A stretch of DNA of 59,602 nucleotides, the filler included, from Stramenopiles sp. TOSAG23-6 (taxonomy: Eukaryota): NCBI GenBank assembly GCA_900128565.1. It is 10 parts of 10 records of this genome, joined end to end, with 100 filler letters (N's around TTAATTAATTAA, not from the genome) between each part and the next. Parts side by side here need not be neighbours in the genome. Positions count along the whole stretch, not along the records: positions 53,758 to 59,602 come from LT636815.1; 9 more parts are not named here. One strand, 5' to 3'. Below the pieces are notes generated by a model, which had not been told where the DNA came from, did not search any database, and saw only the letters and a program-made list of their open reading frames with translations. Below, one piece after another: positions 1 to 59,602 of this stretch; position 1 is the first letter of the stretch; each line of letters starts with the position of its first letter. Both the position numbers and the translations under genes were made by a program.

Positions 1-90
1 TATTTCAAAAAAAAAACTAAAATTTGTTAGGTACAAAATTTCGTACGAAAAAATATTCGATTTTTTGTTAAAAAAAAAAATAAAACATAC
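1..90 (-). mobile_element. Introner-like intron, 3'-truncated by the contig end (copies at 11983-12072 and 17962-18051)
   Basis: Minus strand reads GAT|GTATGTTTTATTT...TTTCGTACGAAATTTTGTACCTAAC...TTGAAATA. Confidence 0.85.
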
Positions 91-690: not shown

Positions 691-1096
691 TTTCAAAGTT
701 TCGTTATATATACATAATGGGTAAGGTCCCACTTATAAATGGAATCGTAACAACATCCCCATTTTCTATAATGCAAGGATAAATATTTGGAATATTTTTC
801 TGCCTCGATAGAATTTGCAACGACAATATTTTGGATACGATTCGCGGGAATTCGCGGGCTATAGATTCATATACAAATTTTCGTAGTTAAATTCTAATTT
901 CTAATTTATTTGGATATGACAGTTTTGTCCCAGGATTTCGTGGGGGAGTTTTTGCTGAATTTTTAACAGTCCAATCTTTCTCTCTACTACGTAATAAAGA
1001 TACTAAGTTTCTGAGATATCGTTGAATAAATAGATTANATCACACGCGATTACCTTAAGGTTGCGACTGTCAGATTGAATCAGTTGTGCGTGTAGA

Positions 1097-5892: not shown

Positions 5893-5992
5893 NNNNNNNN
5901 NNNNNNNNNNNNNNNNNNNNNNNNNNNNNNNNNNNNTTAATTAATTAANNNNNNNNNNNNNNNNNNNNNNNNNNNNNNNNNNNNNNNNNNNN
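5893..5992. other. Artificial contig spacer (N-run + TTAATTAATTAA + N-run); the same spacer recurs at 11883-11982, 17862-17961, 23841-23940, 29819-29918, 35786-35885, 41753-41852, 47712-47811, 53658-53757
   Basis: 100-nt blocks with a stop-in-all-frames linker; the intervening contigs fall monotonically in length from 5892 to 5845 nt. Confidence 0.97.
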
Positions 5993-9067: not shown

Positions 9068-11882
9068 ATGACCTTTCATTACAAGAGCATGAACTCAACA
9101 AATCTCATTTTCGTCGTATTTGCTTTTATGACAGGGCTTTGTCCTGTTATTGGTGCAAGTCATAAGAGAATCATATGGGCTCCTACGGATAAAAAAAAAG
9201 TGGATTTTAAGCAAGAACACCTCAATAAATGGAATAAAGTGAAAAACTTGGCGTCCTTTGCCGTCGATGATGTTTTAGAAGAAGATCAACAAGATGCGCG
9301 TGCCGATGATCAAAGTTCCCCCTGGATTTGCAGACTCGCAGATGCAAACATAACTTATAACGTAAAAAGAAATTTCTCGACGTTAGAGTGGAAATTATTT
9401 CCTATACCTCTAGATTTGGTTTCTTTATTGTCCCCCAATATGATTATTGTATTTAACTGTAATCCTAAAAATAGCAGTGATTTGACGATTACAAGGGTCA
9501 GGAAATCGATTGAAACATGGTATGATGAGGTTCTACAGGAGAGAGATGAAGCTAAGAAATATTCTTTCAAGTATTTTAAATTAAATTTCAAAGCAGCATT
9601 CATATCGGGACTCATTAAATTTTTGAAATGGAGGGTGGTTAATAACGACGAAAGTAATTGGATTGTTGGAACAATTAAAAACATAATATTATGTGCAATA
9701 TCAAGTTTATGTGATCAATTGCAATTTATTTTTAAAACGTTCAACTATCTCTGGGGCAAGTACGCTTTTAAAATTTAATTTATAAAATTTTTGTTTCGTA
9801 CCAAAATGTGTACCTAAGAAAAAATTTGAATTTCAAATATTTTTTCACGATACAGGATCAAGAAAATCTGGAACCGAAAGAAAATTTTGAAGGAGAGAGA
9901 GGAATCTTTTGCTACTTGGTTTTTAGGTGACCCAGTATTGACTGAACATTTAAACCTCGAAGATGTCGAGGAAGAAAATGATACTGGAGATTCTTCATCA
10001 TTTCTTGAATTAGAATCGTCTATTCAAGACACCTTATACACAAAGGAAGCTCAGATGTTGTTTCATGAAAACATGCAAAATGAATTTATTGACAAATTCT
10101 TTCAAGGCATAAAAGATGGTGTAGCTAAAATTGTTGAAGAGCAAAACAAATGGAATGCAAAACCTTCAATTGTAGTATCCCCATCTGAATCCACACTGAG
10201 AACTAAAGATATGAATTTTGGTAGTGAAATGAGATTTCGGTCAAAAACTACACCTGAAAATAGTTTTCGAAAAAGTTTTCGAAAAATCGATAATAAATCA
10301 TTTCAAAAGATTGATCCAAGGAAAAGCCCACTTCAAAAGATTGATACAAGTTCATATTCTCAGCGAGCTGCTACTGTTCACAGTGCAAAATCGAAATCTC
10401 GCTCCTTAATTAAACATTCCGAGGAACACTATGCCAAACAGAAAAAGGAAATAANNNNNNNNNNNNNNNNNNNNNNCAAAAGAGGATATTAAATGTCTTT
10501 GTAAGTCTTCAAAATTGAATTTCGATTTTTTTTTGTACTAAATTTTGTACCTAACAAATTTCGAATTTAAAATATTTTTTCATGATACTTGTGGTGCTAT
10601 GTGTGACAAGAAAGATAAAGTATGCATGCATGATTGCAAACAATTGTTTGGCCTTGGGTATAACATACAAATTCAATATCAGTTGCCAAATGTTTTAAAA
10701 GCTGTGTCAAATGCGTTAATTGTAATTGGTTCAGCAGGTGTAGCAGCAGTGAATATTCAAGAAATAAAAGAAGCGCTTATACCAAAGATTACAATTCATG
10801 TAGGAGCAAGTGTTCAAATGATGTACCAGATGACACAATCTATTATGAAAATTNNNNNNNNNNNNNNNNNNNNNNNNNNNNCATGTTCTCCACGAAAAAC
10901 TTTATAAACTAACTAGATTCAAAGCCTCAGTTGAATCTAACCATTGTTCTGGATTTTCGCATAGAAAAGCAGCAAAGATAATTGAATCGGAAAAACAAAC
11001 AAACTCCATGGTAAAAGATGTGTGCATTTTCATCATGAATTTTAAATTTATTTATTTTTGTACCAAATTTTGCATCTAACAAATTTCAAATATAAAATAT
11101 TGTAACACAGTACATTGGGGGTGATCTTCGAGCTCATCAATCTGTTGGCACTACTACCATTGTAAATGTTGGCGACATTTCCTCTTCAAAATCGCGTGGG
11201 GTGTGTGGTGAAACAGCCTCGAGCTATAAATNNNNNNNNNNNNNNNNNNNNNNNNNNNNNNNNNNNNNNNNNNNNNNNNNNNNNNNNNNNNNNNNNNNNN
11301 NNNNNNNNNNNNNNNNNNNNNNNNNNNNNNNNNNNNNNNNNNNNNNNNNNNNNNNNNNNNNNNNNNNNNNNNNNNNNNNNNNNNNNNNNNNNNNNNNNNG
11401 TGCTTTAAAATCTTTAGGGGGTGCAATATTAAAACTAGGAAAGTCCATCATGATGTGCCTTGGAAAATTATTTTGTTCCATTGTAGGTGCAATAGAACGT
11501 CGTTTAAAAAAGTTCATGAGGATACTCCCCGGATCTTCAGCTGCATCTACTTTTATCGAAACAGGATCTTCCGTAGAACAACACACCCGTCTGAATTCTG
11601 AGCAGCAAGCTCTGATGTACACTTACATTGAGAACAATTTGTGCTTTAAAATCTTTAGGGGGTGCAATATTAAAACTAGGAAAGTCCATCATGATGTGCC
11701 TTGGAAAATTATTTTGTTCCATTGTAGGTGCAATAGAACGTCGTTTAAAAAAGTTCATGAGGATACTCCCCGGATCTTCAGCTGCATCTACTTTTATCGA
11801 AACAGGATCTTCCGTAGAACAACACACCCGTCTGAATTCTGAGCAGCAAGCTCTGATGTACACTTACATTGAGAACAATTTG
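9068..11882 (+). CDS. Multi-exon putative secreted protein of unknown function (gapped, 3'-truncated)
   Basis: Hydrophobic N-terminus (LIFVVFAFMTGLCPVIGA). ORF pieces join in frame across introns 9760-9855, 10501-10590 and about 11020-11110. Confidence 0.55.
9760..9855 (+). mobile_element. Introner-family intron ending in canonical AG
   Basis: AA|GTACGCTTTT...TTTCGTACCAAAATGTGTACCTAAG...TTCACGATAC-AG|; joins WGK-IKKIWN in frame. Confidence 0.75.
10501..10590 (+). mobile_element. Introner-family intron, GT...TT with TT direct repeat
   Basis: TT|GTAAGTC...TTTTGTACCTAAC...CATGATAC-TT|; removal gives KCLCGAMCD, while read-through hits TAA. Confidence 0.75.
11020..11110 (+). mobile_element. Degenerate introner-family intron (boundaries ambiguous)
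   Basis: Core TTTGTACCAAATTTTGCATCTAAC; both 11020-11110 (GT-AG) and 11022-11115 (GT-AT) keep the frame. Confidence 0.55.
11400..11881 (+). repeat. Exact 241-bp tandem duplication next to a gap (probable assembly artefact)
   Basis: 11400-11640 is repeated at 11641-11881; the length is not a multiple of 3. Confidence 0.8.
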
Positions 11883-11982
11883 NNNNNNNNNNNNNNNNNN
11901 NNNNNNNNNNNNNNNNNNNNNNNNNNTTAATTAATTAANNNNNNNNNNNNNNNNNNNNNNNNNNNNNNNNNNNNNNNNNNNN

Positions 11983-17861: not shown

Positions 17862-17961
17862 NNNNNNNNNNNNNNNNNNNNNNNNNNNNNNNNNNNNNNN
17901 NNNNNTTAATTAATTAANNNNNNNNNNNNNNNNNNNNNNNNNNNNNNNNNNNNNNNNNNNN

Positions 17962-23840: not shown

Positions 23841-23940
23841 NNNNNNNNNNNNNNNNNNNNNNNNNNNNNNNNNNNNNNNNNNNNTTAATTAATTAANNNN
23901 NNNNNNNNNNNNNNNNNNNNNNNNNNNNNNNNNNNNNNNN

Positions 23941-26508: not shown

Positions 26509-27433
26509 ATGTCTCAATCAAATGATCCTGAAGCTCCTCTCATAACCGACGCTAAATCATCCGATACTACAAAAGTTCAATCGGGTCATGCGCATGGGTA
26601 CGCTTTCCATCGACGTGAGGACAAAATCATGGCGCCACAAATGGGCCAAAAACTCGTCATGGAATTTATTGGAACAATGTTTCTCTCCCTTGCTGCATCG
26701 AATTCAACAACTACTGCATATGGTGTTGGATTAATGCTTGCTGTAATGGTGTACGCAGGTGGACCAATCTCTGGTGGTCATTATAATCCAGCTGTGAGTT
26801 TAGCAGTCATGTTACGATTCCTCGGAACGGAACATGAAGGAACGTTGGAGCAAACTGCTCCATATATGCTCGTTCAATTCATTGGAGCATTTATGGGTTC
26901 TTATTTGGGTAATTCAATGCGAAATGGTGTACGTTTTGTCTATTTGAAATTATTATTTTTTATACGAAATGTTGTACTTAAACAACAACAACAAAAAAAA
27001 TTTAATTTTTTTTTTTTTTTTTTTTTTTTCAAATTTCCTCATGTATAAAATAGATGCAAACATCATAATTTTTAACACATTTAGTAATTTTGTATTATAC
27101 ACAAAATATGTGCTTTTGACTGCTACGGTGAAAAATGTATCACCGAATAGCTATTATGGACTTGCAATGTACGTGATTCATTATGAATTTATAATTTATA
27201 ATTTTTTTTCAAAAAAAAAAAAAAAAAATTACGAATAATTTTTTTTTCATAGTAAATGTTGTACCTAACAAATTTTGTTTTTTTTTTGAAATATTTATTC
27301 AAAAATGCATTGGTGGTACAGTTACAGCATCAGCATTAGCTGGTGGTTCAATATCTGGTGGTGGATATAACCCAGCTTTGGGTGTCGTTCTCCCATTAGT
27401 TGCAGGCTATGTGTATGATTTCATTCATCATAT

Positions 27434-27472
<39 letters not shown>

Positions 27473-27876
27473 TATGAAAATTTTGTACCTAATTACGTTT
27501 TTTCAAAAAAATGTATTTTTTTTTTTTTTTTTTTTTTTGGTATGAAATTATGTATCTAACTATTTAGTATTAAAAAATAATATTTCTTCACTATATAGAA
27601 GTTGGGGTAAAATGATGTGCTTTCTCATTGCACCAATTTTTGGTGCTGTTGCAGCAGCTGGAGTGTTTCGTTTTGTTCAACGTTTGTTTTCAAAATTTAA
27701 CATTTTTTTTTTTTTTTTTTTTTTTTTTTNNNNNNNNNNNNNNNNNNNNNNNNNNNNNNNNNNNNNNNNNNNNNNNNNNNNNNNNNNNNNNNNNNNNNTC
27801 ATACAAAATTGTATACCTAACAAAAAAAAATCAAATTTGACATTTTTTTGACAATACATGTGGACGAAGTTATTAA
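26509..27876 (+). CDS. Aquaporin / MIP channel, four visible introns; one internal exon probably missing from the assembly
   Basis: SGGHYNPAVSLA and SGGGYNPALG NPA boxes, EFIGTMFL, YGLAIGGTV after splicing, and APIFGAVAA. Confidence 0.9.
27169..27310 (+). mobile_element. Introner-family intron, GT...AT
   Basis: GCA AT|GTACGTG...TGTACCTAAC...TTGAAATATTTATTCAAAAATGC-AT|T GGT restores GLAIG; the next AG is out of frame. Confidence 0.88.
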
Positions 27877-29764: not shown

Positions 29765-29978
29765 ATGTATTTTGGAAAAATATTTCAAAAAAAATCTAAA
29801 AAAATTTGTTAGGTACAANNNNNNNNNNNNNNNNNNNNNNNNNNNNNNNNNNNNNNNNNNNNTTAATTAATTAANNNNNNNNNNNNNNNNNNNNNNNNNN
29901 NNNNNNNNNNNNNNNNNNTTTTTCGTACGAAATTTTGTACCTAACGATTTTTTTTTGAAATATTTTTCCAAAATACGT

Positions 29979-35785: not shown

Positions 35786-35886
35786 NNNNNNNNNNNNNNN
35801 NNNNNNNNNNNNNNNNNNNNNNNNNNNNNTTAATTAATTAANNNNNNNNNNNNNNNNNNNNNNNNNNNNNNNNNNNNNNNNNNNNA

Positions 35887-36866
35887 TTGGAGATCTTTTT
35901 CATCTTGGGTAGTTAATGATGGCAAATCAGATACAAAGGGGTAGGGAATATTTACTCCTTTTCGTTCACCAAGAGGTCCATCATTATTAACAACACAATG
36001 CACTTCACCTCTTGCTTTGTCACATGATACAACATCAAGGCTTATGAGACCATCATCTATGTATTTTGGAAAAATATTTCAAAAAAAAAAAATTAAAATT
36101 GTTAGGTACAAAATTTCGTACGAAAAATAAATTCGAAATTGAAAAAAAAATAAAATATACATAAATATTCTTTGTCCCACATTGACTTCATTCGCAAGAT
36201 TTTTATAGTCTACAAAGACATTTGAAGAATCTCCGTTCTCTTGATATTTTCTATTTGTCGCTAATACTAAACTTTGACCATTTTTAAGTTGAACGACTTT
36301 GGTATCATGTATTTTTGGAAAATATTAAAAAAAAAAATGTTAGGTACGAAATTTCGTATGAAAAAAAAATCGAAATTCGAAATTGAAAACGAATTTAAAA
36401 AAAAAAATGTTAGGTACAAAATTTCGTATGAAAAAAAAATCGAAATTCGAAATTGAAAACGAACATCTGATTTGAAACATCCAGTTCGTATTTCTGGGCC
36501 TTTAGTATCAGCGGCGATAGAACATATATCTTCCCTACTTCCATCTTCAAAGTCAATTGGTCCATTTGACTTACGAATTTTATTGAGAGAACAACGAAGA
36601 TCTTCTATAACTTGAGATTTGTCCTCATGTGAACCATGACTAAAATTAAGTCGAAGGCAATTCATTCCATTCATCAGTAATTCCATTATACTATCTTTAC
36701 TTGAGGTACTGGGACCAACAGTACATATAATTGAAGTCTTGCGTTCCCGTCTGAGTACAAGATTATATTTTAAGGTCGAGTTGTGTGAAATAGAAACCGA
36801 AGCTGATCGGACATTGAATTTCACCGGGGTAAAAATATTTCTAATTCTTCTGGCAAGACAAAGCAT
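35887..36866 (-). CDS. PK: Pyruvate kinase, N-terminal part, with putative mitochondrial transit peptide; exons 36465-36866, 36161-36306, 35887-36058
   Basis: RKTSIICTVGP, RLNFSHGSHE, DTKGPEIRTG, VDYKNL, IFIDDGLISL and LGERKGVNIP, read after removing two non-AG introns. Confidence 0.95.
36059..36160 (-). mobile_element. Introner-family intron, GT...AT (102 nt)
   Basis: TTT AT|GTATATTTT...TTTCGTACGAAATTTTGTACCTAAC...CCAAAATAC-AT|A GAT GAT GGT. Confidence 0.92.
36307..36464 (-). mobile_element. Introner-family intron, GT...AT (158 nt, core duplicated internally)
   Basis: TCA GAT|GTTCGTTTT...(core x2)...CAAAAATAC-AT|GAT ACC AAA GTC. Confidence 0.9.
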
Positions 36867-37253: not shown

Positions 37254-38766
37254 ATGACGGATTCAGGCTTTGAGGGTACCACTTCAGCACCTGCCAAAAC
37301 GAATATACCAAAACTCGATGTTGTTGACGTCAACATTAATAACAACAAAGACACAACTCCAACACTCTACAAGTTAGCGCCACTCTTGTGGTCAGAGATA
37401 AAATTACGCCTCAAACCACCTGAAAAGGCAGAAATTAAACGAATTCTAGGGAGTGATAAAATTCGCAGTAATAAAGATTTACACGCTGAAGCTCGAAATC
37501 TATTAGAGATTTTACAAGACTTTCGAAAGCAAAATAATTTAGACAAAAAAAAACTTTCACGGAGAAAACTTCCTCCAAAACCTGCTGGTGAAGAGTTACT
37601 TCGTCGACAAATAATGTTGTTGGTGGATAATTTACACCAAAATCAGCAAGATCTGAGAAATGTGGATAATTTTCATGCTTCCAAATCGAATAATTTTATA
37701 TCGTTACAAACTAGAGAAAAAGATATTTTAAATTATGTAGTTTCTGCAGATGAGCGTTTCTCGGAAACTCTTCATAGTAGTCCTCAAAAGACAAAACAAT
37801 CACATCATCGTTTAAATTTGCATGAAATGCCTTTTGTACAGCGGCCGCATAGCGCAAATGATGAGCTCTTTTTGCGACGCAAAAACAGGAAATCAAAATA
37901 TTCAAATCTACGTCAGAGAGACTCGCTAGGTGATATTTTTTTAAATCAAAAACATGAAAACCGTGAAAAACATAAAGATCGTTTATTATTATCATCCATC
38001 CATCAAAATACACCAAAACATAGTGCACGAAGTGCTCCTGGTATCATGACTGCTGGTGCCTTACTCGGTCCTATGTACGTTTTCATCATCAATTTCAAAT
38101 TTATTTATTTTTTTATAAAAATTTTGTACCTAACAAAAACAATTTGAAAATATTTTCCTAAAATACATGCAGAACAATTTAAATATAGAACGCATAGAAG
38201 CTGTAGCAGAAGCTTTAAGAGGGGCACTGGAGGAAGAAAGTAATCGGCTAGAAAGAGATATTGAGTATATAAGTATGTTATTAGAAGAAGAATCTAATTT
38301 GCAATCTAGTTTTATTGTTGAAACGAAACAAGCACATCCACCAAGTCTTATTGAACTTCGCACTTTGGAGAATAAGTTGCGACATAAATGGTTAAAATCT
38401 GATGACGTCATTAAAAATGAAAATAAATGCCTAAAATCCAATAAAGTTGGTACATCTAGTACACTATTTCAGACACCTTCAGAATTGAATAGATTTTATA
38501 ATAGTAATAATAGTATAGTTAAAGAAACAAATGAAAAAAATGAAAAAAATGAAAAAGGCAGTGAAGAAATAGAAAAAGAAGTTGGGGGTAAGAATACTCA
38601 AAAGAAGGAAGGCCATGTACGTTTTCATCATACATTTTAATCTTCTTTCATAGAAAATTTCGTACCTAACAATTGTTTTTAACCAATTTCTAATTTTAAA
38701 TATTTCTTCACAATAAATGCATCGCGATTTCGTAATTCCATTCTTGAAGCGAAATATATGTCTTGA
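37254..38766 (+). CDS. CCDC24-like coiled-coil protein; exons 37254-38074, 38169-38616, 38719-38766
   Basis: LWSEIK...EIKRILG...LHAEA..L..IL and LNIERIEAVAEALRGALEEE..LERDI...LEEE...PSLIEL resemble the two CCDC24 blocks as I recall them; they join in frame via a GT...AT intron. Confidence 0.75.
38075..38168 (+). mobile_element. Introner-family intron, GT...AT (94 nt)
   Basis: CCT AT|GTACGTTTT...TTTGTACCTAAC...CTAAAATAC-AT|G CAG AAC; using the CAG 4 nt downstream gives a stop within 4 codons. Confidence 0.88.
38617..38718 (+). mobile_element. Introner-family intron, GT...AT (3' end could instead be 38722)
   Basis: CAT|GTACGTTTT...TTTCGTACCTAAC...TTCACAATAA-AT|GCA TCG; no AG nearby. Confidence 0.7.
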
Positions 38767-41700: not shown

Positions 41701-41909
41701 GTATGTTTTATTTTTTTTCAAATTCGATTTTTTTTCGTACGAAATTTTGTACNNNNNNNNNNNNNNNNNNNNNNNNNNNNNNNNNNNNNNNNNNNNTTAA
41801 TTAATTAANNNNNNNNNNNNNNNNNNNNNNNNNNNNNNNNNNNNNNNNNNNNAGGTACGAAATTTCGTATGAAAAAAAAAATTAAATTAGAAATTCATAT
41901 AAAACATAC

Positions 41910-47692: not shown

Positions 47693-47841
47693 ATTTGATT
47701 TTCGATTTACTNNNNNNNNNNNNNNNNNNNNNNNNNNNNNNNNNNNNNNNNNNNNTTAATTAATTAANNNNNNNNNNNNNNNNNNNNNNNNNNNNNNNNN
47801 NNNNNNNNNNNTTTTTTTTGAAATATTTTTCCAAAATACAA

Positions 47842-48367
47842 ATCTCATTGGGATTTTCATAAACCCTACTGTTGTACATCTGTAACCTTGGATTCATTAG
47901 ATAAATATGAACATCGGGGTCGCACAGGACTAAATAACTTGGGGAATACGTGTTTTATGAATTCGACTATACAATGTCTAAGTCATGCTTTACCCATTAC
48001 TCGATATTTTTTGAGCGATGCATTTCGTGATGAATTAAATAGAGAAAATAATTTAAATGGAACTGCGGGAATTCTTGCAGTTCAATACGCAAAACTAATC
48101 AAATCTCTCTGGTTAGGAAATAATGTGACGGTTGCACCTCGAAATTTGAAACAAGCATTAGCTAAATTTGCCCCACGATTTTCTGGATATTTACAACATG
48201 ATTCACAAGAATTACTTGTTTTTCTCTTAGATGGTTTGCATGAGGATTTAAATCAAGTGAGTAATAAACAATATGTGGAACTTCGGGATGATGAAGGTCG
48301 ACCAGATGTTGTTGTAGCTGAAGAAAGTCTGAGAAATCATCGTCAACGAAATATTTCAGTGATTGAT
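47842..48367 (+). CDS. USP deubiquitinase exon (redundant copy of 51938-52463)
   Basis: GLNNLGNTCFMNS Cys box and QHDSQELL..LLDGLHEDLN. Confidence 0.85.
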
Positions 48368-48422
48368 GAACGTTTTATTTTTTTTTACAAAAAAATCGAA
48401 TTTGAAAAAAAATAAAACATAC

Positions 48423-48645
48423 ATTTGACAACTTTTTGAGCAAGTTTGACTGTTATTGCGGCACCATCCTCGCATACTGCGTCCATGTCTGAAACAAGCT
48501 TTTCCATCTTATTTTCCATATCCTCTACATTATGCTTCATCTTTCGAATGGTGTCCGTCGCAGCTATGAACTTGCTGTAATTTTCGTGCACTAGCATCTT
48601 CATGTCACTATCGATAGTTTTAATCTCTCGGACAAATCTGCACAT
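48423..48645 (-). CDS. VPS51: Vps51 (GARP subunit) N-terminal exon fragment (copy at 52519-52741)
   Basis: EIKTIDSDMKMLVHENYSKFIAATDTIRKMK is the Vps51 N-terminal signature; it ends at an element donor at 48422. Confidence 0.7.
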
Positions 48646-48672
48646 AAATTCACTTCAGATAGGCTTAAAGGT

Positions 48673-50508
48673 TTGCTGTCAAGTCTTGGAGATCTAACGG
48701 AAGAACTCAATAAATTAGATGAACCGAAATGGGGTATTGCAAAAAACGAAATTGAACTTCTCCATCCTGATGTTGACAATAGTATACACAGGGGATACGG
48801 CTTTGGTTTGGTACCTGAAGGTTTCCAACAGCAATTTCAATATCCCAGAGCCTCAATGGCACCAAAAGGAAAACCTCCTTGGCGTCATGTTGGTTCTAAT
48901 TCTCTAAGAGCATCAGGAGTGCATAAGTCAGTGTAGGTGACCCTAACCCTAAGCCTAATCATGAATTTTTAATTTTTTTTTCTTTCGAAATTCCGTACTT
49001 CACATTTCTTTTTCGCAAAGAACAATTCATGCCTAACGATTTTTACTATGTACAATACAACATTTTTCACAAAACATAAGTGTCTCGCTCTCTCGTGAAG
49101 GTTTCAGTCAAGACTCGGAGTCTACTTATGGGAAAAAAAAAACTGGTTTTCATTCGCAGTATAAATCTTCAAGGGACATGGAAAACAATTTATTATGGTA
49201 TCAAAATGAAATTCGGAGATTAAAAATAAAGGAAATGAAAGTTGATGCTGATATTGCACAACAAAAAGATTTAATTCTATCGTATAGAAAACAACATCGA
49301 GCATCATACAAGGTAGCTAAAACAATATTAAGAAAATTTTCAGATATTTATTGGTTAAATTTGTCCGAAATACCAAAAGAAATACCGAAAAAAAAGTCGA
49401 TATTTACGATGAAAATCAGCAATACAACTCAAAATGTAAATGATGAAAATGTTTTCCAAGCATTTACTGGTAATATTGAAACAGAATTAGAGACGGTTAT
49501 ATCAATGTTACGGTTACATGTATGTTTGATATGAATTTCTAATTTAATTTTTTTTTCATACNNNNNNNNNNNNNNNNNNNNNNNNNNNNNNNNNNNNNNN
49601 NNNNNNNNNNNNNNNNNNNNNNNNNNNNNNNNNNNNNNNNNNNNNNNNNNNNNNNNNNNNNNNNNNNNNNNNNNNNNNNNNNNNTATACTATAATTGGCA
49701 GAAGTTCTGTGGAACAAACCGGAAATGAGGAGGAAAGAGGAGATGAATTCATCAATAATTTATTTAATACTTTAAAAAGTGAAAAAAGTTTTGGTATTTC
49801 GTGTAACCCTACTCAATCCGTTATTCGGTTGCTTTGTGATGGAACACCACACGAAATACTTTCAAGTGCTTTTCGATATGTCTGTATGAGTAACGGTAGT
49901 GATGGAGAAAGTCGTTTACGATATTTCCAATTCCATGAATTTATGGAGACTTTTATAAAAACTATTTTTGTGATATCTCCAAAATGTAAGGAAATATATA
50001 CAAAAAGGGCACAAAGTGCTGCCGATTTAGCCAATATAGCTACAACTATGATGTTACACTCTTCAGATCGCTCAGCAACTCAAGACGTGTTTATAAAGTG
50101 GTTTATGTCAAAGTTTTCGTGTATTTTTGTACACCCAAAAGGCATTTCAAGTAGTTATTCAAGTGAAATAAGTGTTACGAAAACACTGCAACCTAACCCT
50201 AACCCTAATTCAATTCCTAAAAAAAACAATTCGAACTCTGTTGATATCAAGGAAATGAATAATGATAATAAGTTAAAATAAAGGGAACATGTCCAATCAC
50301 AGGTAAGGATTATTGGTATAACGAGAAAACTGAGGAAAGTGTATATGAAGACCCTAACCCTAACCCAAATAAGCCGAAAATGTCCATGAAAAAAAAACTT
50401 GCGCAAAGTGTTGATATAAAATCAGAAGACTCAGTTGAATTAGCTGGGCCAATAGCTAAAGAAGACGACAGATTTAATTTCTTCCCACCAACTCCAAATG
50501 ATGCATAG
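48673..50508 (+). CDS. Multi-exon unknown protein (gapped); WW-like segment in a shifted frame near the end
   Basis: ORF pieces 48673-48932, about 49078-49519 and 49685-50281 are separated by element-like introns; GTCPITGKDYWYNEKTEESVYEDP follows at about 50284-50355. Confidence 0.45.
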
Positions 50509-50949
50509 AAATGATCTATAAAAAATCATAAATTTTCTCTAAAAAAGCATAAATTTTCTCATTTTCTGTATTAGTAAAAAATATGCTTTAAAACTTTGTA
50601 AAAAAAAATAAAAATTTCGTGCATTCAGATATACTCTTTTAATTTCATACATTTCTTTAGTAATTTTGTATGTGTACAGATTATTATTTTACAGTAGTGT
50701 ATAAATACATTAATACGTTGTATGAAAATACTTGCGGTGTTTGCAAAAAACTTACACATTTTGTTTTAGCTAGGGTTAGGGTTGGATGCTAGGGTTCAGC
50801 ATCTGATGCAAAAGAGAGAGATACGAATCTAATCATAATACGTAGTCTTGCTGAAAAAACGTCGTATATTTCGCCGTTATTCCATTGAATCAACCCTTCG
50901 CCATTGAATTCTAATTGAATAAGTATTGTAAAAAAAATATTCGGATAAC

Positions 50950-52463
50950 ATGCCCAGTGGTATGGTTGGCCAGTTGGAAGGACCCGTTGAAGAACGTTTA
51001 CGAAAGGAGGGTAACGAGCACTTTAATGCATGTCGATGGGATATGGCACTTCAAATCTATACAAAGTGTTTGAAAGAAAACAGTTGTAACATTAAAGCTC
51101 GTTTAAATAGAGCTGCTGTACTGCTAAAACAGGAGAGGTACGTATTGGCAATAAGTGATTGTGATCGTGTTTTAAAACAAGAATCAAGTAATACAAAAGC
51201 ACTTTATCGTAAGGCTAAAGCCTACAGCTCAATAGGCAATTTCGAGGATGCAATAGCGACATATCGAATTTTCGTGGATTCTGGTGGTTCTATTGATAGT
51301 GTAAAAAATAAAATTACTTTATTGGAGAAGTATGCTAAGAAAAAATCTAAAAATACGAGAAACAATCAGTTGAATGCTTCCGTGACAGATGTTAATAGTA
51401 GTGCAAAAGAAATTCAAAGAATGCAGTTAACTGATAGCGTTAATGAAGTCAATGTTGGTTCCAATAGCACCTCTAGTAGTAGTATTTTATCTCCTCCATC
51501 AGCTATTCGAAATCGATCGAGAAGTTCCAACGCAAGAAGTTTTTCAAAAAGCGATGAACCTCAAAGAAAATGTACTGCAAGAAAACGTATACATCATGAA
51601 AAGATTTTATCCTCTTCATTTTGTGGGGCATGTGTATGTTTTATTTTTTTTTTAACAAAAAANNNNNNNNNNNNNNNNNNNNNNNNNNNNNNNNNNNNNN
51701 NNNNNNNNNNNNNNNNNNNNNNNNNNNNNNNNNNNNNNNNNNNNNNNNNNNNNNNNNNNNNNNNNNNNNNNNNNNNNNNNNNNNNNNNNNNNNNNNNNNN
51801 NNNNNNNNNNNNNNNNNNNNNNNNNNNNNNNNNNNNNNNNNNNNNNNNNNNNNNNNNNNNNNNNNNNNNNNNNNNNNNNNNNNNNNNNNNNNNNNNNNNN
51901 NNNNNNNTTTTTTTTGAAATATTTTTCCAAAATACAAATCTCATTGGGATTTTCATAAACCCTACTGTTGTACATCTGTAACCTTGGATTCATTAGATAA
52001 ATATGAACATCGGGGTCGCACAGGACTAAATAACTTGGGGAATACGTGTTTTATGAATTCGACTATACAATGTCTAAGTCATGCTTTACCCATTACTCGA
52101 TATTTTTTGAGCGATGCATTTCGTGATGAATTAAATAGAGAAAATAATTTAAATGGAACTGCGGGAATTCTTGCAGTTCAATACGCAAAACTAATCAAAT
52201 CTCTCTGGTTAGGAAATAATGTGACGGTTGCACCTCGAAATTTGAAACAAGCATTAGCTAAATTTGCCCCACGATTTTCTGGATATTTACAACATGATTC
52301 ACAAGAATTACTTGTTTTTCTCTTAGATGGTTTGCATGAGGATTTAAATCAAGTGAGTAATAAACAATATGTGGAACTTCGGGATGATGAAGGTCGACCA
52401 GATGTTGTTGTAGCTGAAGAAAGTCTGAGAAATCATCGTCAACGAAATATTTCAGTGATTGAT
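50950..52463 (+). CDS. TPR - (MYND-type zinc finger) - USP deubiquitinase, partial
   Basis: Three TPRs (LRKEGNEHF...KALYRKAKA), FCGAC before the gap, SHWDFHKPYC after it, then the USP Cys box. Element ends flank the gap (donor at 51634, acceptor end at 51937). Confidence 0.75.
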
Positions 52464-53863
52464 GAACGTTTTATTTTTTTTTACAAAAAAATCGAATTTG
52501 AAAAAAAATAAAACATACATTTGACAACTTTTTGAGCAAGTTTGACTGTTATTGCGGCACCATCCTCGCATACTGCGTCCATGTCTGAAACAAGCTTTTC
52601 CATCTTATTTTCCATATCCTCTACATTATGCTTCATCTTTCGAATGGTGTCCGTCGCAGCTATGAACTTGCTGTAATTTTCGTGCACTAGCATCTTCATG
52701 TCACTATCGATAGTTTTAATCTCTCGGACAAATCTGCACATAAATTCACTTCAGATAGGCTTAAAGGTTTGCTGTCAAGTCTTGGAGATCTAACGGAAGA
52801 ACTCAATAAATTAGATGAACCGAAATGGGGTATTGCAAAAAACGAAATTGAACTTCTCCATCCTGATGTTGACAATAGTATACACAGGGGATACGGCTTT
52901 GGTTTGGTACCTGAAGGTTTCCAACAGCAATTTCAATATCCCAGAGCCTCAATGGCACCAAAAGGAAAACCTCCTTGGCGTCATGTTGGTTCTAATTCTC
53001 TAAGAGCATCAGGAGTGCATAAGTCAGTGTAGGTGACCCTAACCCTAAGCCTAATCATGAATTTTTAATTTTTTTTTCTTTCGAAATTCCGTACTTCACA
53101 TTTCTTTTTCGCAAAGAACAATTCATGCCTAACGATTTTTACTATGTACAATACAACATTTTTCACAAAACATAAGTGTCTCGCTCTCTCGTGAAGGTTT
53201 CAGTCAAGACTCGGAGTCTACTTATGGGAAAAAAAAAACTGGTTTTCATTCGCAGTATAAATCTTCAAGGGACATGGAAAACAATTTATTATGGTATCAA
53301 AATGAAATTCGGAGATTAAAAATAAAGGAAATGAAAGTTGATGCTGATATTGCACAACAAAAAGATTTAATTCTATCGTATAGAAAACAACATCGAGCAT
53401 CATACAAGGTAGCTAAAACAATATTAAGAAAATTTTCAGATATTTATTGGTTAAATTTGTCCGAAATACCAAAAGAAATACCGAAAAAAAAGTCGATATT
53501 TACGATGAAAATCAGCAATACAACTCAAAATGTAAATGATGAAAATGTTTTCCAAGCATTTACTGGTAATATTGAAACAGAATTAGAGACGGTTATATCA
53601 ATGTTACGGTTACATGTATGTTTGATATGAATTTCTAATTTAATTTTTTTTTCATACNNNNNNNNNNNNNNNNNNNNNNNNNNNNNNNNNNNNNNNNNNN
53701 NTTAATTAATTAANNNNNNNNNNNNNNNNNNNNNNNNNNNNNNNNNNNNNNNNNNNNTAAATTTGTTTTTTGGTTAGGTACAAAATTTCGTATGAAAAAA
53801 AATCATTAGGTAAAGGAATTTCGTATGAAAAAAAAAAAAAAAAAAAATTAAAAAATTTTTTAC

Positions 53864-53895
<32 letters not shown>

Positions 53896-53910
53896 TTTTT
53901 CACAACACAT

Positions 53911-54045
53911 GTAGGATTTATACGTGTCACAGGAGATATTGTTCATACAAGCTATTTAGATGATTTAAAAGAAGTTGATTTACCTGATTTACCTCGATTT
54001 GATATTGAAATCGTCAAAAATTCGATATTAACACAATATTTATAG
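53911..54045 (+). CDS. Terminal exon of an unknown gene
   Basis: Follows an element-type 3' end (AATATTTTTTCACAACAC-AT) and is open to TAG. Confidence 0.45.
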   Translation, partial: VGFIRVTGDIVHTSYLDDLKEVDLPDLPRFDIEIVKNSILTQYL

Positions 54046-54118
54046 TAGAGGCAAACATAAATTCATAAATTCATGCATAAATACTATTAATATTAAATAG
54101 ATATGTTTAATTTATTTT

Positions 54119-56609
54119 TTATTGGTTATAGAAATTATATGTATCTATCATTAAATCTCCAAACGCAATACACTCATATACATTTATCATCGCGGTTGTA
54201 CCGTCATCAAAAAAACCCTCATCAAAAAAATGTACTTTACTCAAAATTTCTAAGTTAGTGTTCGATTCAATATAAGTCTCTTCTTGAAGATAACCATCGA
54301 TTATTCTATGATGACTCATAATGATAGCGTTACGCCAAGGCTTTTTATCAGTTCGATTAGGGTTAGGGTTACGGTGTAGGGTTCTATCAAATTGTTTGGA
54401 ATGTAGTAAATGAATTTTGAGTCCAATTTGGGAAATTGCTTTTGTGGACGAATAAAATGGATTTGTATTTTTTTCAATTATACCAAAATCTAATAAATAT
54501 TGTTTAAAACAATCTAGTTTATGTAATAGCATTGTAACACTTGTTTTTCTCTCCGTTTCAGCAAGTCTACGATATAGTTTATCATACATTGTGAGAAAAT
54601 ATATAATTTTTTTTTCTTTTTTAGTAGAATTTTCATTAGGTACGAAATTGTATACGAAAAAAATAAAAATAAAAATAAAAAACATACATGAACGCTATTT
54701 GCACTTTCTGAGTGTAAACCGTGATTTTTTGCTAAAAGTATCCACATAAATGCTTCAATATCATTCTGATTGGCATGAATAATTGCAAGAAGGTACATAT
54801 AATGTGAACAATATTTTTAGAAAAAAAAATCATTAGGTAAAGGAATTTCGTATGAAAAAAAAAAAAAAAAAAATATTCATTTAAAAAAAATACATGGCTT
54901 TGGTATTACCTAATTGAGCTGCTTGCTGAGCTATTTTTATACCTCGTATTCGATCTCTACTTGGATCGCTAGGGTTGTGGATTTCGATTATACTAAGGTT
55001 AGAATAATATTGTTGCTGGCCATTAGGGTTAGGGTTAGAATTTTGAAGTTCTTGTTGTGTAGACCTTCTCTCAATTCTTTGTGGTGATAAAAGCAAATAT
55101 TGTGAAAAAATATTTCAATTTTTTTTTTCTTTTTCAATCATTAGGGTTAAGTTTTTGTTTTAGTAACGTGTAGGGTTAGGGTTAGGCTCTGAAAACGTAC
55201 AAAGACGCCGCATTAAACATTGCTCTGTCATCTCCTTTTTGAGCAGCAAATGTTGTGAAAAATATTTAAAAAAAAAACTGGTTAGGTACAAAACTTTGTA
55301 TAAAAAACTAAAAAAAAAAAAACTAAAAAAAAAAAAACTAAAAAAAAAATAAATTCGAAATTGAAATTGAAAAGTATACGTTCAAACCAACGGATAGCTT
55401 CATCATCATTTGGATAAACACCTCTACCTTCTCTAAAACTACAACCCTGTATTTTGAAAAAAAATTGAAAAAAAAAAAAAAATTGTGAGATTTTGAAAAA
55501 AAATTGAAAAAAAATTAATTTTTTGTGAGGAATGAAATTTCGTATGAAAAACGTTAGGTATGAATGATTAGGTACAAAATTCTCTATATAAAAAAAAATG
55601 AAAATCAGTTGGATAACATACAAGAGCATATTCAGCTGTACAAATTGCTATGAGTTCACTTGTAATGATGTTAGAATATACTGTTTTTTTAGANATCATT
55701 GAGTTAGGGTTAGGGTTGAGTGTTTCTATTTCTTTTGTTTCTTTTGAATTATTTTCATTTTGAACCCCCTGTTGGCTTTGAACCAGTCCCAACCATGATT
55801 CCATGTCAATAGTTTCATCAGCACTCTTTTTTTTTGTTTCTTTAGGGTTAGGGTTAGGGTTAATAGTTTCATCAGCACTCTTTTTTTTTGTTTCTTTGGA
55901 ATTATTTTTATTTTCAACCATATTCAAAAAACTTTCATCAACATCAACCACACTATGACCCCATTGAAAAATTCCAGGGTTAGGGTTAGGGTTAGTCGTA
56001 TGCATATGATCAAGTTTTTGGAAATTGTTTTCTTGGTTTTTCATAAAAGAATGATTTAGAAGTTTTATATTATGAAAATTCTTTTGTCTTTTTTGATTAC
56101 GTAAGTATTGTGAAAAAATATTTCAAAAAAAATTCTAAAATTTTTTTGTTAGGTACGAAATTTTTTTACGAAAAAAAACCAAAAAAAAAAAATTAAATTA
56201 GAAATTCATATAAAACATACAAGTAATGCATTCGACGAACAAGATTTGACTGCTGCGAAAGAAACTTTTCTTGTATATGTTTGTGTAGTCCAACTGTACG
56301 TCGAAACAAGGCCGTGGCGGCACGGTCATTTTTCTGGAAACCTCCCTCTCCAAAGTAATGATTGAATGCACACATAACCAAAGCAGATGCGTTGTTTGTT
56401 CTTGCAGATCGTAAAATTGTTGATTGTATTGCTTTGTTTCTGCGATCGACTCCAAAGAATCGTGCAGCTGACCACAAATCATCCGTATCGTAGATAAACT
56501 GTCTCAATTCTTTGCAAGTTGAGGCCAATTGGCAGAGAGAGATGACGTGAGACGAAAATAAAAGGCATTCACGTAACAATTCAGTTGGTAAATTAAGAAT
56601 AGTTGTCAT
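54119..56609 (-). CDS. F-box + Sel1-like repeat protein, 7 exons (56221-56609, 55622-56102, 55380-55446, 55201-55249, 54894-55094, 54688-54796, 54119-54583)
   Basis: ILNLPTELL...LCQLASTCKELR F-box. Sel1 motifs AEYALGCSFREGRGV..DDEAIRWF, AAQKGDDRAMFN and AAQLGNTKAMYLLA assemble in one frame after removing six element introns. Confidence 0.85.
54584..54687 (-). mobile_element. Introner-family intron, GT...AT
   Basis: GTT CAT|GTATGTTTT...TTTCGTACCTAAT...CACAATGT-AT|GAT AAA. Confidence 0.82.
54797..54893 (-). mobile_element. Introner-family intron, GT...AT
   Basis: GCC AT|GTATTTT...CATACGAAATTCCTTTACCTAAT...CACATTAT-AT|G TAC CTT. Confidence 0.82.
55095..55200 (-). mobile_element. Introner-family intron, GT...TT, core replaced by CCCTAA repeats
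   Basis: TCT TT|GTACGTTTT CAGAG CCTAACCCTAACCCTA...TTGAAATATTTTTTCACAATAT-TT|G CTT. Confidence 0.75.
55250..55379 (-). mobile_element. Introner-family intron, non-AG end (register uncertain by 2 nt)
   Basis: GAA C|GTATACTTTT...TTTGTACCTAAC...TTCACAAC-AT|TT GCT GCT. Confidence 0.72.
55447..55621 (-). mobile_element. Introner-family intron ending in AG
   Basis: GCT CTT|GTATGTTAT...TTTGTACCTAAT...CAAAATAC-AG|GGT TGT. Confidence 0.82.
56103..56220 (-). mobile_element. Introner-family intron, GT...TT
   Basis: TAC TT|GTATGTTTT...TTTCGTACCTAAC...TTCACAATAC-TT|A CGT. Confidence 0.82.
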
Positions 56610-57060
56610 GCCGTTGATGTTATAAAGCAAGGTTAAACGGTATCACTATTATTTATATTGAAACTCATTTTGTATTTTTCAACGATTACTTCAAAGGCTA
56701 TACCTCATATATATTTATAGTTTACTGTGAATATCAGTTGATAGTGTATCCAATTTATATACTAAAAATAGTATTGATTTATCTACCTATAGCTAGTACA
56801 GTAGCTAGTAGACAATATCTGTGTCTTGTGTCTGTTGTGACATGTCTCAAACAGAAGTCATTTTTTTATACAGTTACAAAACGGTTGAAGTTGTCACTAC
56901 GCTATATATAGGAAGGTATACTATTGGTTATACTATTATAAAAGTGACACTTTATATGTGGTAATATTACTATGTCACTCTCGCGTAGAGTTGCTGCGGG
57001 GAATATGTTTCTATAACGACAGTTCATCTCACTCAAGAGTAAATAGACTTAAAGTATAGA

Positions 57061-57879
57061 ATGAGTGGCATGCGAGCAGCTAGAACGCTGCAAATAGAAC
57101 CACGAAAGAATGAATCATCGTCTGGTCATTCACTTCAAACAACACGTTCTTCTCACACTAGCACTAGAGGGTTAGGATTTCTTAGAGGTATTCGTACAAC
57201 TAGCACTACTAGAGCTGCCAAAGATGCAGCAAGTCGACGTAGACAAAAGCATAATATTGATGCTGCTGCTTTACAACAACATTTAATGCGTGGGATTAAT
57301 TTGTCAACTCCTTCAACTATAAAATTTCGTAGAAATTACAGAAGGAATCGTCAAGGAAACAATGAAAATATGGTACAATTGAAAAACACAACAGATAAGG
57401 TAACAGAATGGACTTGTGATAATTGTACATTATTTAATATTGCAACAGCAAAACAATGTGCCGCATGTAAAAAAATTCGACTTCATGTATATTTTTTTTT
57501 TTTTCAAATTTTAAATTGAATTTTTTTTTCGTACGAAATTTTGTACCTAACAAATTTTCAAAATTTTTTTGAAATATTTTTCTAAAATACATGAGGGAGA
57601 ATTTACATTTGATTATGATCCACAATTATCACTTGCACAACAACGAGGTTTAGTGGAAGCACCACCCCCAAAACTCACTGTAGATGATTGGAAAGAAGTC
57701 GAAAATAAGCTCATTCGTAGAGAACAATTGCCACCAAAACCGAATAGACCTAAAATGTTTTACCCTAACCCTAACCCTAGTACACATCAAAAAAGAGATA
57801 GTAGTGAAATCAATACATCCATTATTCGTGTTGAAGATGATACATGTCCAATATGTTTAGATACATTTGGTATGAAAGA
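57061..57879 (+). CDS. RNF32-like RING protein with a RanBP2-type zinc finger, partial
   Basis: AAALQQHL, WTCDNCTLFN...CAAC, LSLAQQRGLVEAPPPKL..DDW and CPICLDTF; the RING is cut off at the element starting at 57880. Confidence 0.72.
57487..57592 (+). mobile_element. Introner-family intron, GT...AT (an in-frame AG lies 3 nt further on)
   Basis: CTT CAT|GTATATTTT...TTTCGTACGAAATTTTGTACCTAAC...CTAAAATAC-AT|GAG GGA. Confidence 0.8.
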
Positions 57880-58072
57880 GTATGTTTTATTTTATTTTTT
57901 TTTTTTTTTCGGTAAAAAAAAAATCGAATTTTTTTTTTCGTACGAAATTTTGTACCTAACAATTTTTTTTGAATTTTTTTTGAAATATTTTTTGAAATAT
58001 TTTTTTTCGTACGAAATTCCGTACCTAACAATTTTTTTTAGATTTTTTTTGAAATATTTTTCCAAAATATAT
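57880..58072 (+). mobile_element. Composite element with two cores (probable chimeric join)
   Basis: GA|GTATGTTTT, two CGTACGAAATT..GTACCTAAC cores, ending CCAAAATAT-AT; the flanks differ in phase and protein identity. Confidence 0.75.
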
Positions 58073-58946
58073 AAAACTTGGCTCTCCGACGCTTTGGAGA
58101 AATCCCAAGGACGGAAAAACCAAAACATGGAAAAAACAACACGAAATCCAAAACATCAAAAAAATCTATCTGAAAAAGAAGAAAATGTTTTACAAAAAAA
58201 AAATAAACAATTTGAAAATATTTCAAATCGTTTCATCAATACAAAAATTCATCAATCTCAGAATACAAAAAATACAAAAAAAATTAAATCGAACATTGTC
58301 AAGAAAAATGTATCTTTTTATTTTTTTCAATTTTTTATCTAATTTTTTTTTTCGTACGAAATTCCGTACCTAACAAATTTAAAAATTTTTTTTTTTACAA
58401 TACATAAAGAGATTGAAAGTATATTTGAATTGACTGAATTACAAAAAGAATACAAAAAAAAATTTGGAAATATTTCAAATCGTTTTCGTAATAATAAAAA
58501 GTGGTTAAAAAATGCTTTACAGAAGAGCAAACAAGAAAATATAAAACATAAAATTCAATCAAACATCTCAAAAAAACATCGATTGCAGGACGTTCGACAA
58601 CGATGTCAAATATGGAAATTTTCCATTCAACATGTATGTTTTATTTTTTGAAATTTTTTTTCGTACGAAATATTGTACCTAACGAATATTCAATATTTTT
58701 TTTTTGAAATTTTTTTTTTGAAATTTTTTTTTCGTACGAAATATTGTACCTAACGAATATTAAAAAAATATATATTGTTTCACAAAATATCAAACACGAA
58801 AACGACAAAAAACGAATGAAACACGAATTGGGATTTCAAAGATTATTGAAGATTGTGTGTTGGATGCGAAAAGTGTTGACTATCTCAAACAAAAAAACAT
58901 TGAAATGATTGAATGGATAAATCTACATTTCACAAATGAAAATTAA
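58073..58946 (+). CDS. Lysine-rich unknown protein, last three exons (58073-58309, 58406-58633, 58791-58946)
   Basis: The frame is maintained across GT...AT introns 58310-58405 and 58634-58790; internal protein repeat KF.NISNRF / WL..AL.KS. Confidence 0.6.
58310..58405 (+). mobile_element. Introner-family intron, GT...AT
   Basis: AAA AAT|GTATCTTTT...TTCGTACGAAATTCCGTACCTAAC...ACAATAC-AT|AAA GAG. Confidence 0.8.
58634..58790 (+). mobile_element. Introner-family intron, GT...AT, duplicated core
   Basis: CAA CAT|GTATGTTTT...(core x2)...CACAAAAT-AT|CAA ACA; no AG for about 50 nt downstream. Confidence 0.8.
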
Positions 58947-59109
58947 AATTGAATTCAAAGTTGAAAAAAAATATAAAATTGGATTTTTTTTTGTTAGGTA
59001 CAAAATTTACTATGAAAAAAAAAATGAAAAAAAAAAAAACCTAATTGAAATCATTGAAGTATTATATATAAAAACAAAGTGAATTATATATTTTTAAACA
59101 GTAATTTGA

Positions 59110-59602
59110 ATTTTTTATTTATTATTATTTTTCCTTTTTTTTTATTTTTTTAATTTTTTATACTGTATGGACACAACCACCATACATTCATTTATTTTCT
59201 CTCTTTGGAACATTCCCCCCACCACCACTTTTTTTTTATTTTTTATTATTATTTTTCCTTTTTTTTTTATTTTTTTATTTTTTTATACTGTATGGACACA
59301 ACCACCATACATTCATTTATTTTCTCTCTTTGGNNNNNNNNNNNNNNNNNNNNNNNNNNNNNTCCCCACCAACTCTTTATTTTTTGTTTTATTTTTCCCT
59401 CTTTTTTTATTGTTATTTTTCATAATGTATGGACACAACCACCATACATTCATTTATTTTCTCTCTTTGGAACATCTCCTACATAAAAAAGGTTTTCCTT
59501 GTTATATTATTATTTTTCCTTTTTTGTTCACAATATATGATACAGCCATCATACATTCAATTTTTTTTCACTGCAGGAACTGCCCCCATCATTGCCAACA
59601 TC
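59110..59602. repeat. Degenerate tandem repeat with a period of about 125-135 bp
   Basis: TGTATGGACACAACCACCATACATTCATTTATTTTCTCTCTTTGG at about 59164, 59289 and 59426, with a diverged copy at about 59535. Confidence 0.8.

Follow-up and report, generated by a model that had tools for sequence, protein, structure and literature searches.

A candidate introner family with a two-base target duplication and mostly non-AG 3′ ends in Stramenopiles sp. TOSAG23-6

A predicted gene with an F-box and Sel1 repeats in Stramenopiles sp. TOSAG23-6 is interrupted by six putative introns, only one of which ends in AG, and the question raised by this locus is where such introns come from and at which bases they would be cut. 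The gene is located in a stretch of 59,602 nucleotides (hereafter the window) with a G+C content of about 28-38%, which consists of ten pieces of about 5.9 kb each, separated by spacers of the form N44-TTAATTAATTAA-N44; the six-intron gene lies in the last piece (53758-59602). The best explanation, in which belief and doubt are evenly balanced, is that the introns are copies of a non-autonomous, DNA-transposon-like introner in the genome of a marine stramenopile-like organism, and that they would be removed as GT...NN. The coordinates of all features are collected in Table 1.

Six putative introns derived from one element family

The seven joined exons of the F-box/Sel1 gene comprise 1761 nt and 586 codons with a single, terminal stop, and moving any one 3′ boundary by 1 or 2 nt introduces an early stop within codons 130-454. 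Exon 1 matches the F-box-like family of Pfam (E 5.8e-6), and exon 3 corresponds to positions 11-29 of the Sel1 profile at E 0.0049, which is under the Pfam cut-off. The single small exons 55185-55247, 55622-55699, 27312-27431 and 27600-27728 gave no match in Pfam; therefore, the arguments from Sel1 and aquaporin motifs at these places rest on inspection of the sequence against the family motifs. All six introns match the element profile (E <= 9e-6), and two of them are among its nine seeds. An earlier note on this DNA had regarded them as copies of one mobile element, which is supported, and the AT, TT and AG ends share the same two positions after the element end. The terminal dinucleotides, read 5′ to 3′, are TT, AG, AT, TT, AT and AT, the same values as in that note; the coordinates of introns 1-4 are also identical, and the remaining two introns are placed as in Table 1. 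In intron 2 the upstream exon ends in TT and the intron in ATAC-AG, so that, as had been pointed out, removal as GT...AG reads AEYAL/G and a 2-nt shift gives Q for L.

In gene orientation the element starts with GTAYGT, carries a branch-like motif (GTACCTAAC/T) followed by a T-rich tract, and ends in a CACAATAC-like sequence, after which two more bases belong to the intron. It is about 100 nt long, and 21 copies with both ends placed are spread over seven genes, including those for a pyruvate kinase, an aquaporin-like protein, a MatE transporter and a RanBP-type zinc-finger protein. The counts given below rest on these 21 copies; about 15 partial copies, cut by piece ends or N runs, were excluded, and the 5′ end of the copy at 11022-11115 was moved by 2 nt, guided by the reading frame and by how the copy aligns with its subfamily. 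An internal core of 22 nt was counted 18 times (<=3 mismatches) vs 0 expected from 100 shuffles; the similarity between copies reaches well past the splice signals. The profile built from nine copies returned 188 rows at E <= 1, many of them opposite-strand echoes or low-complexity sequence, and its strong rows range from E 1e-15 to 1e-27. Identity to the consensus is 65-93% overall and amounts to 0.93, 0.78, 0.89, 0.65, 0.78 and 0.82 for introns 1-6, respectively. The inverted ends GTAT...ATAC are perfect over 4 nt, extend in the consensus to about 8-9 nt with one gap, and are short for a miniature inverted-repeat transposable element (MITE). No autonomous partner element was found in the window; the core 22-mer had no match in metagenomes, and the pyruvate kinase protein had one relative there (44%), of no use for finding more copies. 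Five copies (36307-36464, 57880-58072, 58634-58790, 27434-27598 and 55447-55621) are 157-193 nt long and have two or three internal units in tandem, every one of which carries a CTAAC-like motif.

In 14 of the 21 copies, the dinucleotide preceding the element recurs directly behind ...ATAC (AT in 11, TT in three), against a chance of 0.078 per copy. Since AT is its own reverse complement, AT alone could belong to the inverted ends. This is ruled out by the three TT/TT pairs, which are direct and not inverted repeats, and by the pyruvate kinase junction, where profile and homologue comparison place a single AT before insertion; both identify a target duplication. Insertion of the element duplicates two bases of the target, mostly AT and in other cases TT or AA. 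A probable AA duplication is present at 47812-47840 and 51908-51936, where the 3′ half of a copy ends in ...ATAC-AA before A-TCT-CAT-TGG, the 5′ side is masked or missing, and homologues have the Q-x-S-H-W of a MYND zinc finger. At 48349-48422 (and 52445-52518) a minus-strand 5′ element half adjoins the antisense of a ubiquitin-hydrolase exon, which ends before the rest of the domain, an arrangement suggestive of an inversion or of chimeric joining at a repeat. A ciliate-type sequence eliminated from DNA was considered and rejected, because TA borders are absent and the orientation bias described below also speaks against it.

Removal of the element together with one copy of the duplication from the sequence restores reading frames and conserved protein motifs. 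In pyruvate kinase (36059-36160) the upstream exon reaches Pfam position 127 and the downstream exon starts from 129, with the junction codon ATA (AT + A) as position 128. A tblastn search with the homologue P0124 gives GQRIF and IDDGLISL on either side of 34 inserted codons with a stop among them, where P0124 itself reads GQRIFIDDGLISL. The aquaporin-like gene is open over 244 codons when the element and two bases are removed, and its junctions fall within what we take to be the LAIG motif and just ahead of the presumed second NPA motif. Across the 21 copies, 17 are clearly consistent with this rule, three are equivocal and one is inconsistent.

Without exception, the 21 copies, in seven genes, are sense-oriented relative to the open frames around them (p = 4.8e-7). 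Because the ends are inverted, an antisense copy would likewise start with GTAT and end with ATAC; so the bias points to a need for the one-sided CTAAC motif and T tract, which would indicate RNA splicing. The same bias bears on the possibility that the copies are not spliced at all and represent inactivating insertions in dying genes, assembly artefacts or sequences removed at the DNA level. In favour of this possibility, a regained frame is expected whenever an insertion with a duplication is removed, and the source is fragmentary; exon 1 of the F-box/Sel1 gene yielded no longer relative in a protein search, and its C-terminal exon, compared with 1.84 billion representatives, gave a single match (E 8.9e-4, over 17 query residues, 81-97) and no homologue. 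However, a uniform sense orientation is predicted by neither decay nor DNA excision. Moreover, several copies reside in conserved housekeeping genes whose exons are open and 57-67% identical to homologues, and at 28% G+C there are exons of 129-160 codons without a stop, though the copies have diverged to 65-93% identity. Absence of splicing is thus considered quite improbable.

Table 1. Positions of the gene, its introns, further element copies and other features in the window.
Feature	Position	Strand	Upstream bases	Start...end	Length (nt)	Remarks
F-box/Sel1-repeat gene, coding sequence	54119..56609	-				ATG at 56609, stop at 54119; 7 exons, 6 element-derived introns
Exons of F-box/Sel1 gene	56609-56221, 56102-55622, 55446-55380, 55249-55201, 55094-54894, 54796-54688, 54583-54119	-
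Intron 1	56103..56220	-	TT	GTATGT...CACAATAC-TT	118	repeat intact; profile E 2.9e-22, seed copy
Intron 2	55447..55621	-	TT	GTATGT...CAAAATAC-AG	175	canonical GT-AG, repeat lost; junction AEYAL/G
Intron 3	55250..55379	-	AC	GTATAC...TTCACAAC-AT	130	mismatched, non-AG; profile E 2.9e-16
Intron 4	55095..55200	-	TT	GTACGT...CACAATAT-TT	106	profile E 9e-6 over 3′ 62 nt; identity 0.65
Intron 5	54797..54893	-	AT	GTATTT...CACATTAT-AT	97	profile E 1.5e-13; junction codon ATG
Intron 6	54584..54687	-	AT	GTATGT...CACAATGT-AT	104	profile E 6.5e-19, seed copy
Pyruvate kinase reference copy	36059..36160	-	AT	GTATAT...CAAAATAC-AT	102
Second pyruvate kinase copy	36307..36464	-				internally doubled, AT/AT
AG copy	9760..9855	+	AA	GTACGC...CACGATAC-AG		profile E 4.5e-20
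Third AG copy, aquaporin-like gene	27434..27598	+	AT	GTTTTT...CACTATAT-AG
Exception, doubled copy	57880..58072	+	GA	GTATGT...CAAAATAT-AT		frame broken when element + two bases are removed
(CCCTAA)2-3 stretches	54356-54373, 55022-55039, 55175-55186, 55703-55714, 55841-55858, 55979-55996	-
(CCCTAA)2-3 stretches	50192-50209, 50353-50364, 57764-57775	+
Spacers	5893-5992, 11883-11982, 17862-17961, 23841-23940, 29819-29918
Spacers, continued	35786-35885, 41753-41852, 47712-47811, 53658-53757

The bases at which the introns would be cut

Removal in the GT...NN register is preferred over AT...AC, with a confidence that stands about midway between acceptance and rejection. GT is present at the element start in 21/21 copies; at the other end, base -2 is A in 18/21 and base -1 is T or G in 21/21. 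The seven copies with a mismatched repeat (upstream dinucleotides AA, TT, AT, AC, GA, GT and GT) keep the 5′ GT and the A at -2 in every case, and end in AT (four) or AG (three). Under this reading, the major spliceosome would cut at the GT of the element and join directly after the duplicated dinucleotide. The resulting introns would be GT...AT, with YAU for YAG before the cut, less often GT...TT, GT...AA or GT...AG, and the transposon would be removed scar-free whatever the target dinucleotide. The 3′ site would be defined locally by the element end, neither by the first AG nor by the distance from the branch site, and in older copies a point mutation could make the terminal dinucleotide AG and thereby produce ordinary GT-AG introns. 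A broader proposal, that the major spliceosome of this lineage routinely uses a non-AG 3′ site (YAU, sometimes YUU or YAA) given by the introner end and the duplication, with AG arising later, is more tentative and its truth is judged somewhat less probable than its failure.

Two claims of the earlier note on the register stand in part. The mismatched copies had been said to fix the register, which they do not do at the level of DNA, since a shift keeps the frame and the removed length is equal; they are informative for complementary DNA (cDNA). Cleavage had further been described as set by position, and it does follow the local element end, although no fixed distance from the branch-like motif is kept (25-52 nt, once 107). 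In intron 3 a 2-nt deletion in the element end shifts the putative cut along with it, so the determinant would be local.

In the AT...AC register, the copies with an AT duplication would be spliced from the upstream AT to the AC of the element, and the AG copies as GT...AG, with identical mRNA. This would apply to 11 of the 21 copies, those of the form AT/GT...AT; ATGTAT/ATACAT is a perfect inverted pair. AT-AC is, to our knowledge, the only well-established non-GT-AG pairing, and the pairing of a first A with a last C works. AT-AC is also among the intron termini accepted in a large introner survey (PMC12130899). On the other hand, the three TT/TT copies and the four with upstream GT, GT, AC and GA are left uncovered. 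The would-be terminal C, the last base of the element, is retained in 13/21 copies overall and in 7/11 AT/AT copies, and is gone in the other four of these; AT upstream combined with this C, as AT...AC ends require, is thus possible in 7/21 copies and impossible in 14. Moreover, a perfect GTAYGT, its GT kept in 21/21 copies, begins 2 nt past the supposed start, and the shifted site has A at +5. The first step of splicing is decided on before the 3′ end is recognised, which also counts against this register. It is accordingly regarded as unlikely.

Another possibility is that these are ordinary GT-AG introns using other AGs, in the exon or inside the element, with proteins slightly different from the restored ones. 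The earlier note had cautioned that AGs lie in frame downstream of introns 1 and 4, and both are present (+15 after 56103, +18 after 55095); intron 3 likewise has its first downstream AG in frame at +15. The copy at 57880-58072 is in frame only via an internal AG or a 1-nt shift. However, 6 of the 18 non-AG copies have their first downstream AG in frame, which equals the chance expectation of 1/3, and those of introns 5 (+31) and 6 (+17) are out of frame. The internal AGs found 13, 11 and 19 nt past the branch-like motif in introns 1 (counted there from CTAAC), 4 and 6 are also out of frame. In pyruvate kinase (36059-36160) the nearest AG (+2) breaks the frame, and other choices destroy a motif identical to the homologue. 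Since exon 3 ends at Sel1 position 29 of 36, the next exon should supply the last seven positions, and use of the +15 AG of intron 3 would delete five of them (positions 30-34). The use of other AGs therefore seems improbable.

A route like that of the minor spliceosome, in which the 3′ site is found by its distance from a nearby branch site and the terminal dinucleotide is free, was considered on the model of the U12-type introns of Physarum polycephalum. According to the available part of the source, these include GT-AT introns and are proposed to stem from a transposon with a 2-nt duplication (bioRxiv 10.1101/2020.10.12.336362). The element start GTATGTTT is one base off the Physarum GTATCTTT, and TTTGAAATA lies about 20 nt from the end in well-kept copies. 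Nevertheless, positions 4-6 of the 5′ site vary (GTACGT, GTATAT, GTAAGT, GTTCGT, GTGCAT), whereas U12-type sites are rigid, and the consensus GTATGTTT is not of the [AG]TATCCTT type. Diverged copies, among them introns 2, 3, 5 and 6, no longer have the TTTGA motif, while CTAAC/CTAAT is kept; the kept motif GTACCTAAC, situated 25-52 nt (once 107) from the end, differs from a TTCCTTRAC-type branch site. A search of the whole window against Rfam matched no family. This reading is held to be quite improbable.

Several observations weigh against the preferred GT...NN removal. Where the duplication is intact (14 copies), GT...AT, TG...CA and AT...AC yield identical mRNA, so that the register cannot be told from DNA. 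Well-studied spliceosomes pair a first-base G with a last-base G and A with C, and the known cases of GU...AU are a rare variant of the minor spliceosome. The frame is regained by construction whenever an insertion brought a duplication with it; therefore, the frame tests show insertion history and intact host genes, and not splicing itself. The ends of diverged copies were, in addition, set partly by the reading frame, and three of the five non-AG introns of the F-box/Sel1 gene (1, 3 and 4) have their first downstream AG in frame. The three equivocal copies are 10501-10590, where an N run cuts the upstream exon, 26929-27109, with four in-frame 3′ boundaries, and 38617-38718, with 15 codons and a stop. 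The copy at 57880-58072 is one base off under the rule of element plus two bases: when all introns of the region are removed in this way, the first stop is met at codon 325, whereas the frame is open to about codon 454 via the internal AG at 58040-58041 (TTTTAG; the exon starts from 58042 and 31 element bases are kept), and to about codon 444 if the exon begins 1 nt earlier (58072). This could be a canonicalised copy with exonised element sequence or a base error of the assembly. The source as a whole appears to be a fragmentary assembly, in which base errors are possible.

AG ends, the border repeat and further features of the window

AG forms the end of only three of the 21 copies and is not the duplicated dinucleotide in any of these. 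The AG occupies the same place as AT or TT in other copies, namely the two positions that follow ...ATAC, as had been noticed at 9854-9855, and a third case was found at 27597-27598. The view that AG was acquired later receives modest support: the terminal dinucleotide matches the upstream one in 0/3 AG copies vs 14/18 others (one-sided Fisher p = 0.026), and AG would accordingly be a secondary state. AG copies have an identity of 0.71-0.78 vs a mean of 0.80 for intact copies, a difference on which three copies are too few to conclude. Selection on the 2-nt repeat, which the earlier note had thought possible, is not supported, as about 3.97 of the six repeats are expected from the identities to survive by chance and four are seen.

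Telomere-like (CCCTAA)2-3 stretches give 17 matches in the window vs 0.11 expected, and in intron 4 such repeats stand in place of its middle. At the sites whose translation was inspected, the stretches lie on the coding strand and read NPNPN. In this AT-rich genome, AAC-CCT are the only codons used in them, which argues for insertion at the DNA level in multiples of 3-6 nt and not for a selected peptide. The CCCTAA unit contains the CTAAC branch motif.

Many pieces of the window start or stop within an element copy. Open reading frames (ORFs) are common to the pieces 1-5892, 11983-17861 and 17962-23840, and in the piece 47812-53657 the first and the last 1.75 kb are repeats of each other. In 1000-5892 and its two repeats the plus strand is purine-rich (GC skew about +0.2, AT skew about +0.2), with hardly any long plus-strand ORF in the standard code. 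Sampled words of the window are present in three seawater metatranscriptome runs at 7-8% each, a figure that bears on neither expression nor habitat. Protein searches with exon 1, the ubiquitin-hydrolase exon and the pyruvate kinase exon returned no transcript-derived protein of the same species; homologues of the pyruvate kinase exon reach at most 67% identity. The ubiquitin-hydrolase exon (47822-48412, 51918-52508) has one 75% match, P0005, a gene model of 116 aa, and its other good matches are stramenopile or eukaryotic. The source name of P0005 points to a MAST-3-type stramenopile assembly, and the organism is most likely a marine stramenopile. Two stretches that run uninterrupted through the window exon are missing from P0005, the sole near-identical protein in the databases, which ends in residues from element-like sequence; existing gene models thus seem to mishandle these introns.

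Comparison with known introners and non-canonical introns

Bursts of intron gain are at present best explained by introns that transposons create. As far as the available part of the source goes, large introner surveys leave out ends other than GT/GC/GA/AT...AG/AC where these have no RNA support (PMC12130899); therefore, a non-AG introner family would be missed by design. If removal as GT...AT is true, the present lineage would be a further independent one tolerating non-canonical ends, beside Amoebophrya, Fritillaria, euglenids and Physarum, and a clean case in which only the 3′ dinucleotide departs. Relaxation of the 3′ site would then be separated from the other splice signals, as the consensus 5′ site and the branch site are kept, and scar-free removal without AG would allow the transposon to land on almost any dinucleotide of a coding exon. 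In such genomes, genes will be truncated or split by gene finders for which AG is obligatory.

Duplication-restoring introners and non-canonical transposon introns are already known; the present family combines a 2-nt duplication with mostly non-AG 3′ ends. This family was not found in the literature searched on introners, non-canonical and GT-AT introns, and introns of MAST-3 and stramenopiles, and the word 'splice' is absent from the text, supplements not included, of the paper on single-cell genomes of uncultured stramenopiles (PMC5778133). The family described here is a putative introner-type element whose target duplication measures 2 nt and whose 3′ ends are mostly other than AG: many similar copies occur in unrelated genes with a target duplication at their borders, and the GT/GC-AG ends with one site taken from the duplication, which also characterise introners, are not seen.

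The comparisons that follow refer to the available parts of the cited sources. The introners of Micromonas pusilla and Aureococcus anophagefferens are MITE-like DNA transposons that create introns (PMC11282704; PMC7789003). As in these species, the present copies are short, non-autonomous, inserted in many unrelated genes and flanked by duplications, with one splice site supplied by the element, and one duplicate would leave with the intron and restore the mRNA; their introns, however, are GT/GC-AG with duplications of at least 3 nt, whereas here the duplication is 2 nt and 18/21 copies end in AT or TT (PMC11282704; PMC7789003). In Physarum polycephalum GT-AT accounts for 17% of those U12-type introns that are non-canonical, for which a transposon with a 2-nt TA duplication and a TTTGA branch motif has been proposed (bioRxiv 10.1101/2020.10.12.336362). 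The proposed transposon origin, the 2-nt duplication, the relaxed 3′ dinucleotides including GT-AT and the T-rich GTAT 5′ site are common to both systems, but the rigid [AG]TATCTTT and the TTTGA placed 10-12 nt from the 3′ end in Physarum contrast with the U2-like variable 5′ site and the CTAAC at 25-52 nt found here (bioRxiv 10.1101/2020.10.12.336362).

Amoebophrya is likewise a marine protist with introners that have inverted ends, short direct border repeats and non-GT-AG ends (PMC7789003). Its introners show no consistent terminal dinucleotides, form end-pairing hairpins of 8-20 nt, and no U1 is detectable; in the present family, by contrast, GT never varies, pairing of the ends is limited to 4 bp, and the copies fold no better than shuffles (PMC7789003). 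Among eight of the 21 copies folded, including introns 1 and 3-6, with intron 2 left out, none showed stable end-to-end pairing (z-scores -2.43 to +1.25); a terminal stem of at most 4 bp was formed by three well-kept copies outside the F-box/Sel1 gene, and the five folded introns of the gene were without end pairing. The MITE introns of Fritillaria borealis are similarly recent and species-specific, with non-canonical ends and removal by the major spliceosome, although their commonest ends are AG-AC and AG-AT, whereas here the 5′ GT agrees with the consensus and only the 3′ end departs (Henriet et al. 2019, as reviewed in PMC11282704). The nonconventional introns of euglenids share the duplication-like border repeats and a probable MITE origin, but they lack a polypyrimidine tract, form a stable helix and are excised as circles, in contrast to the branch-like motif and T tract present in the copies described here (PMC11282704).

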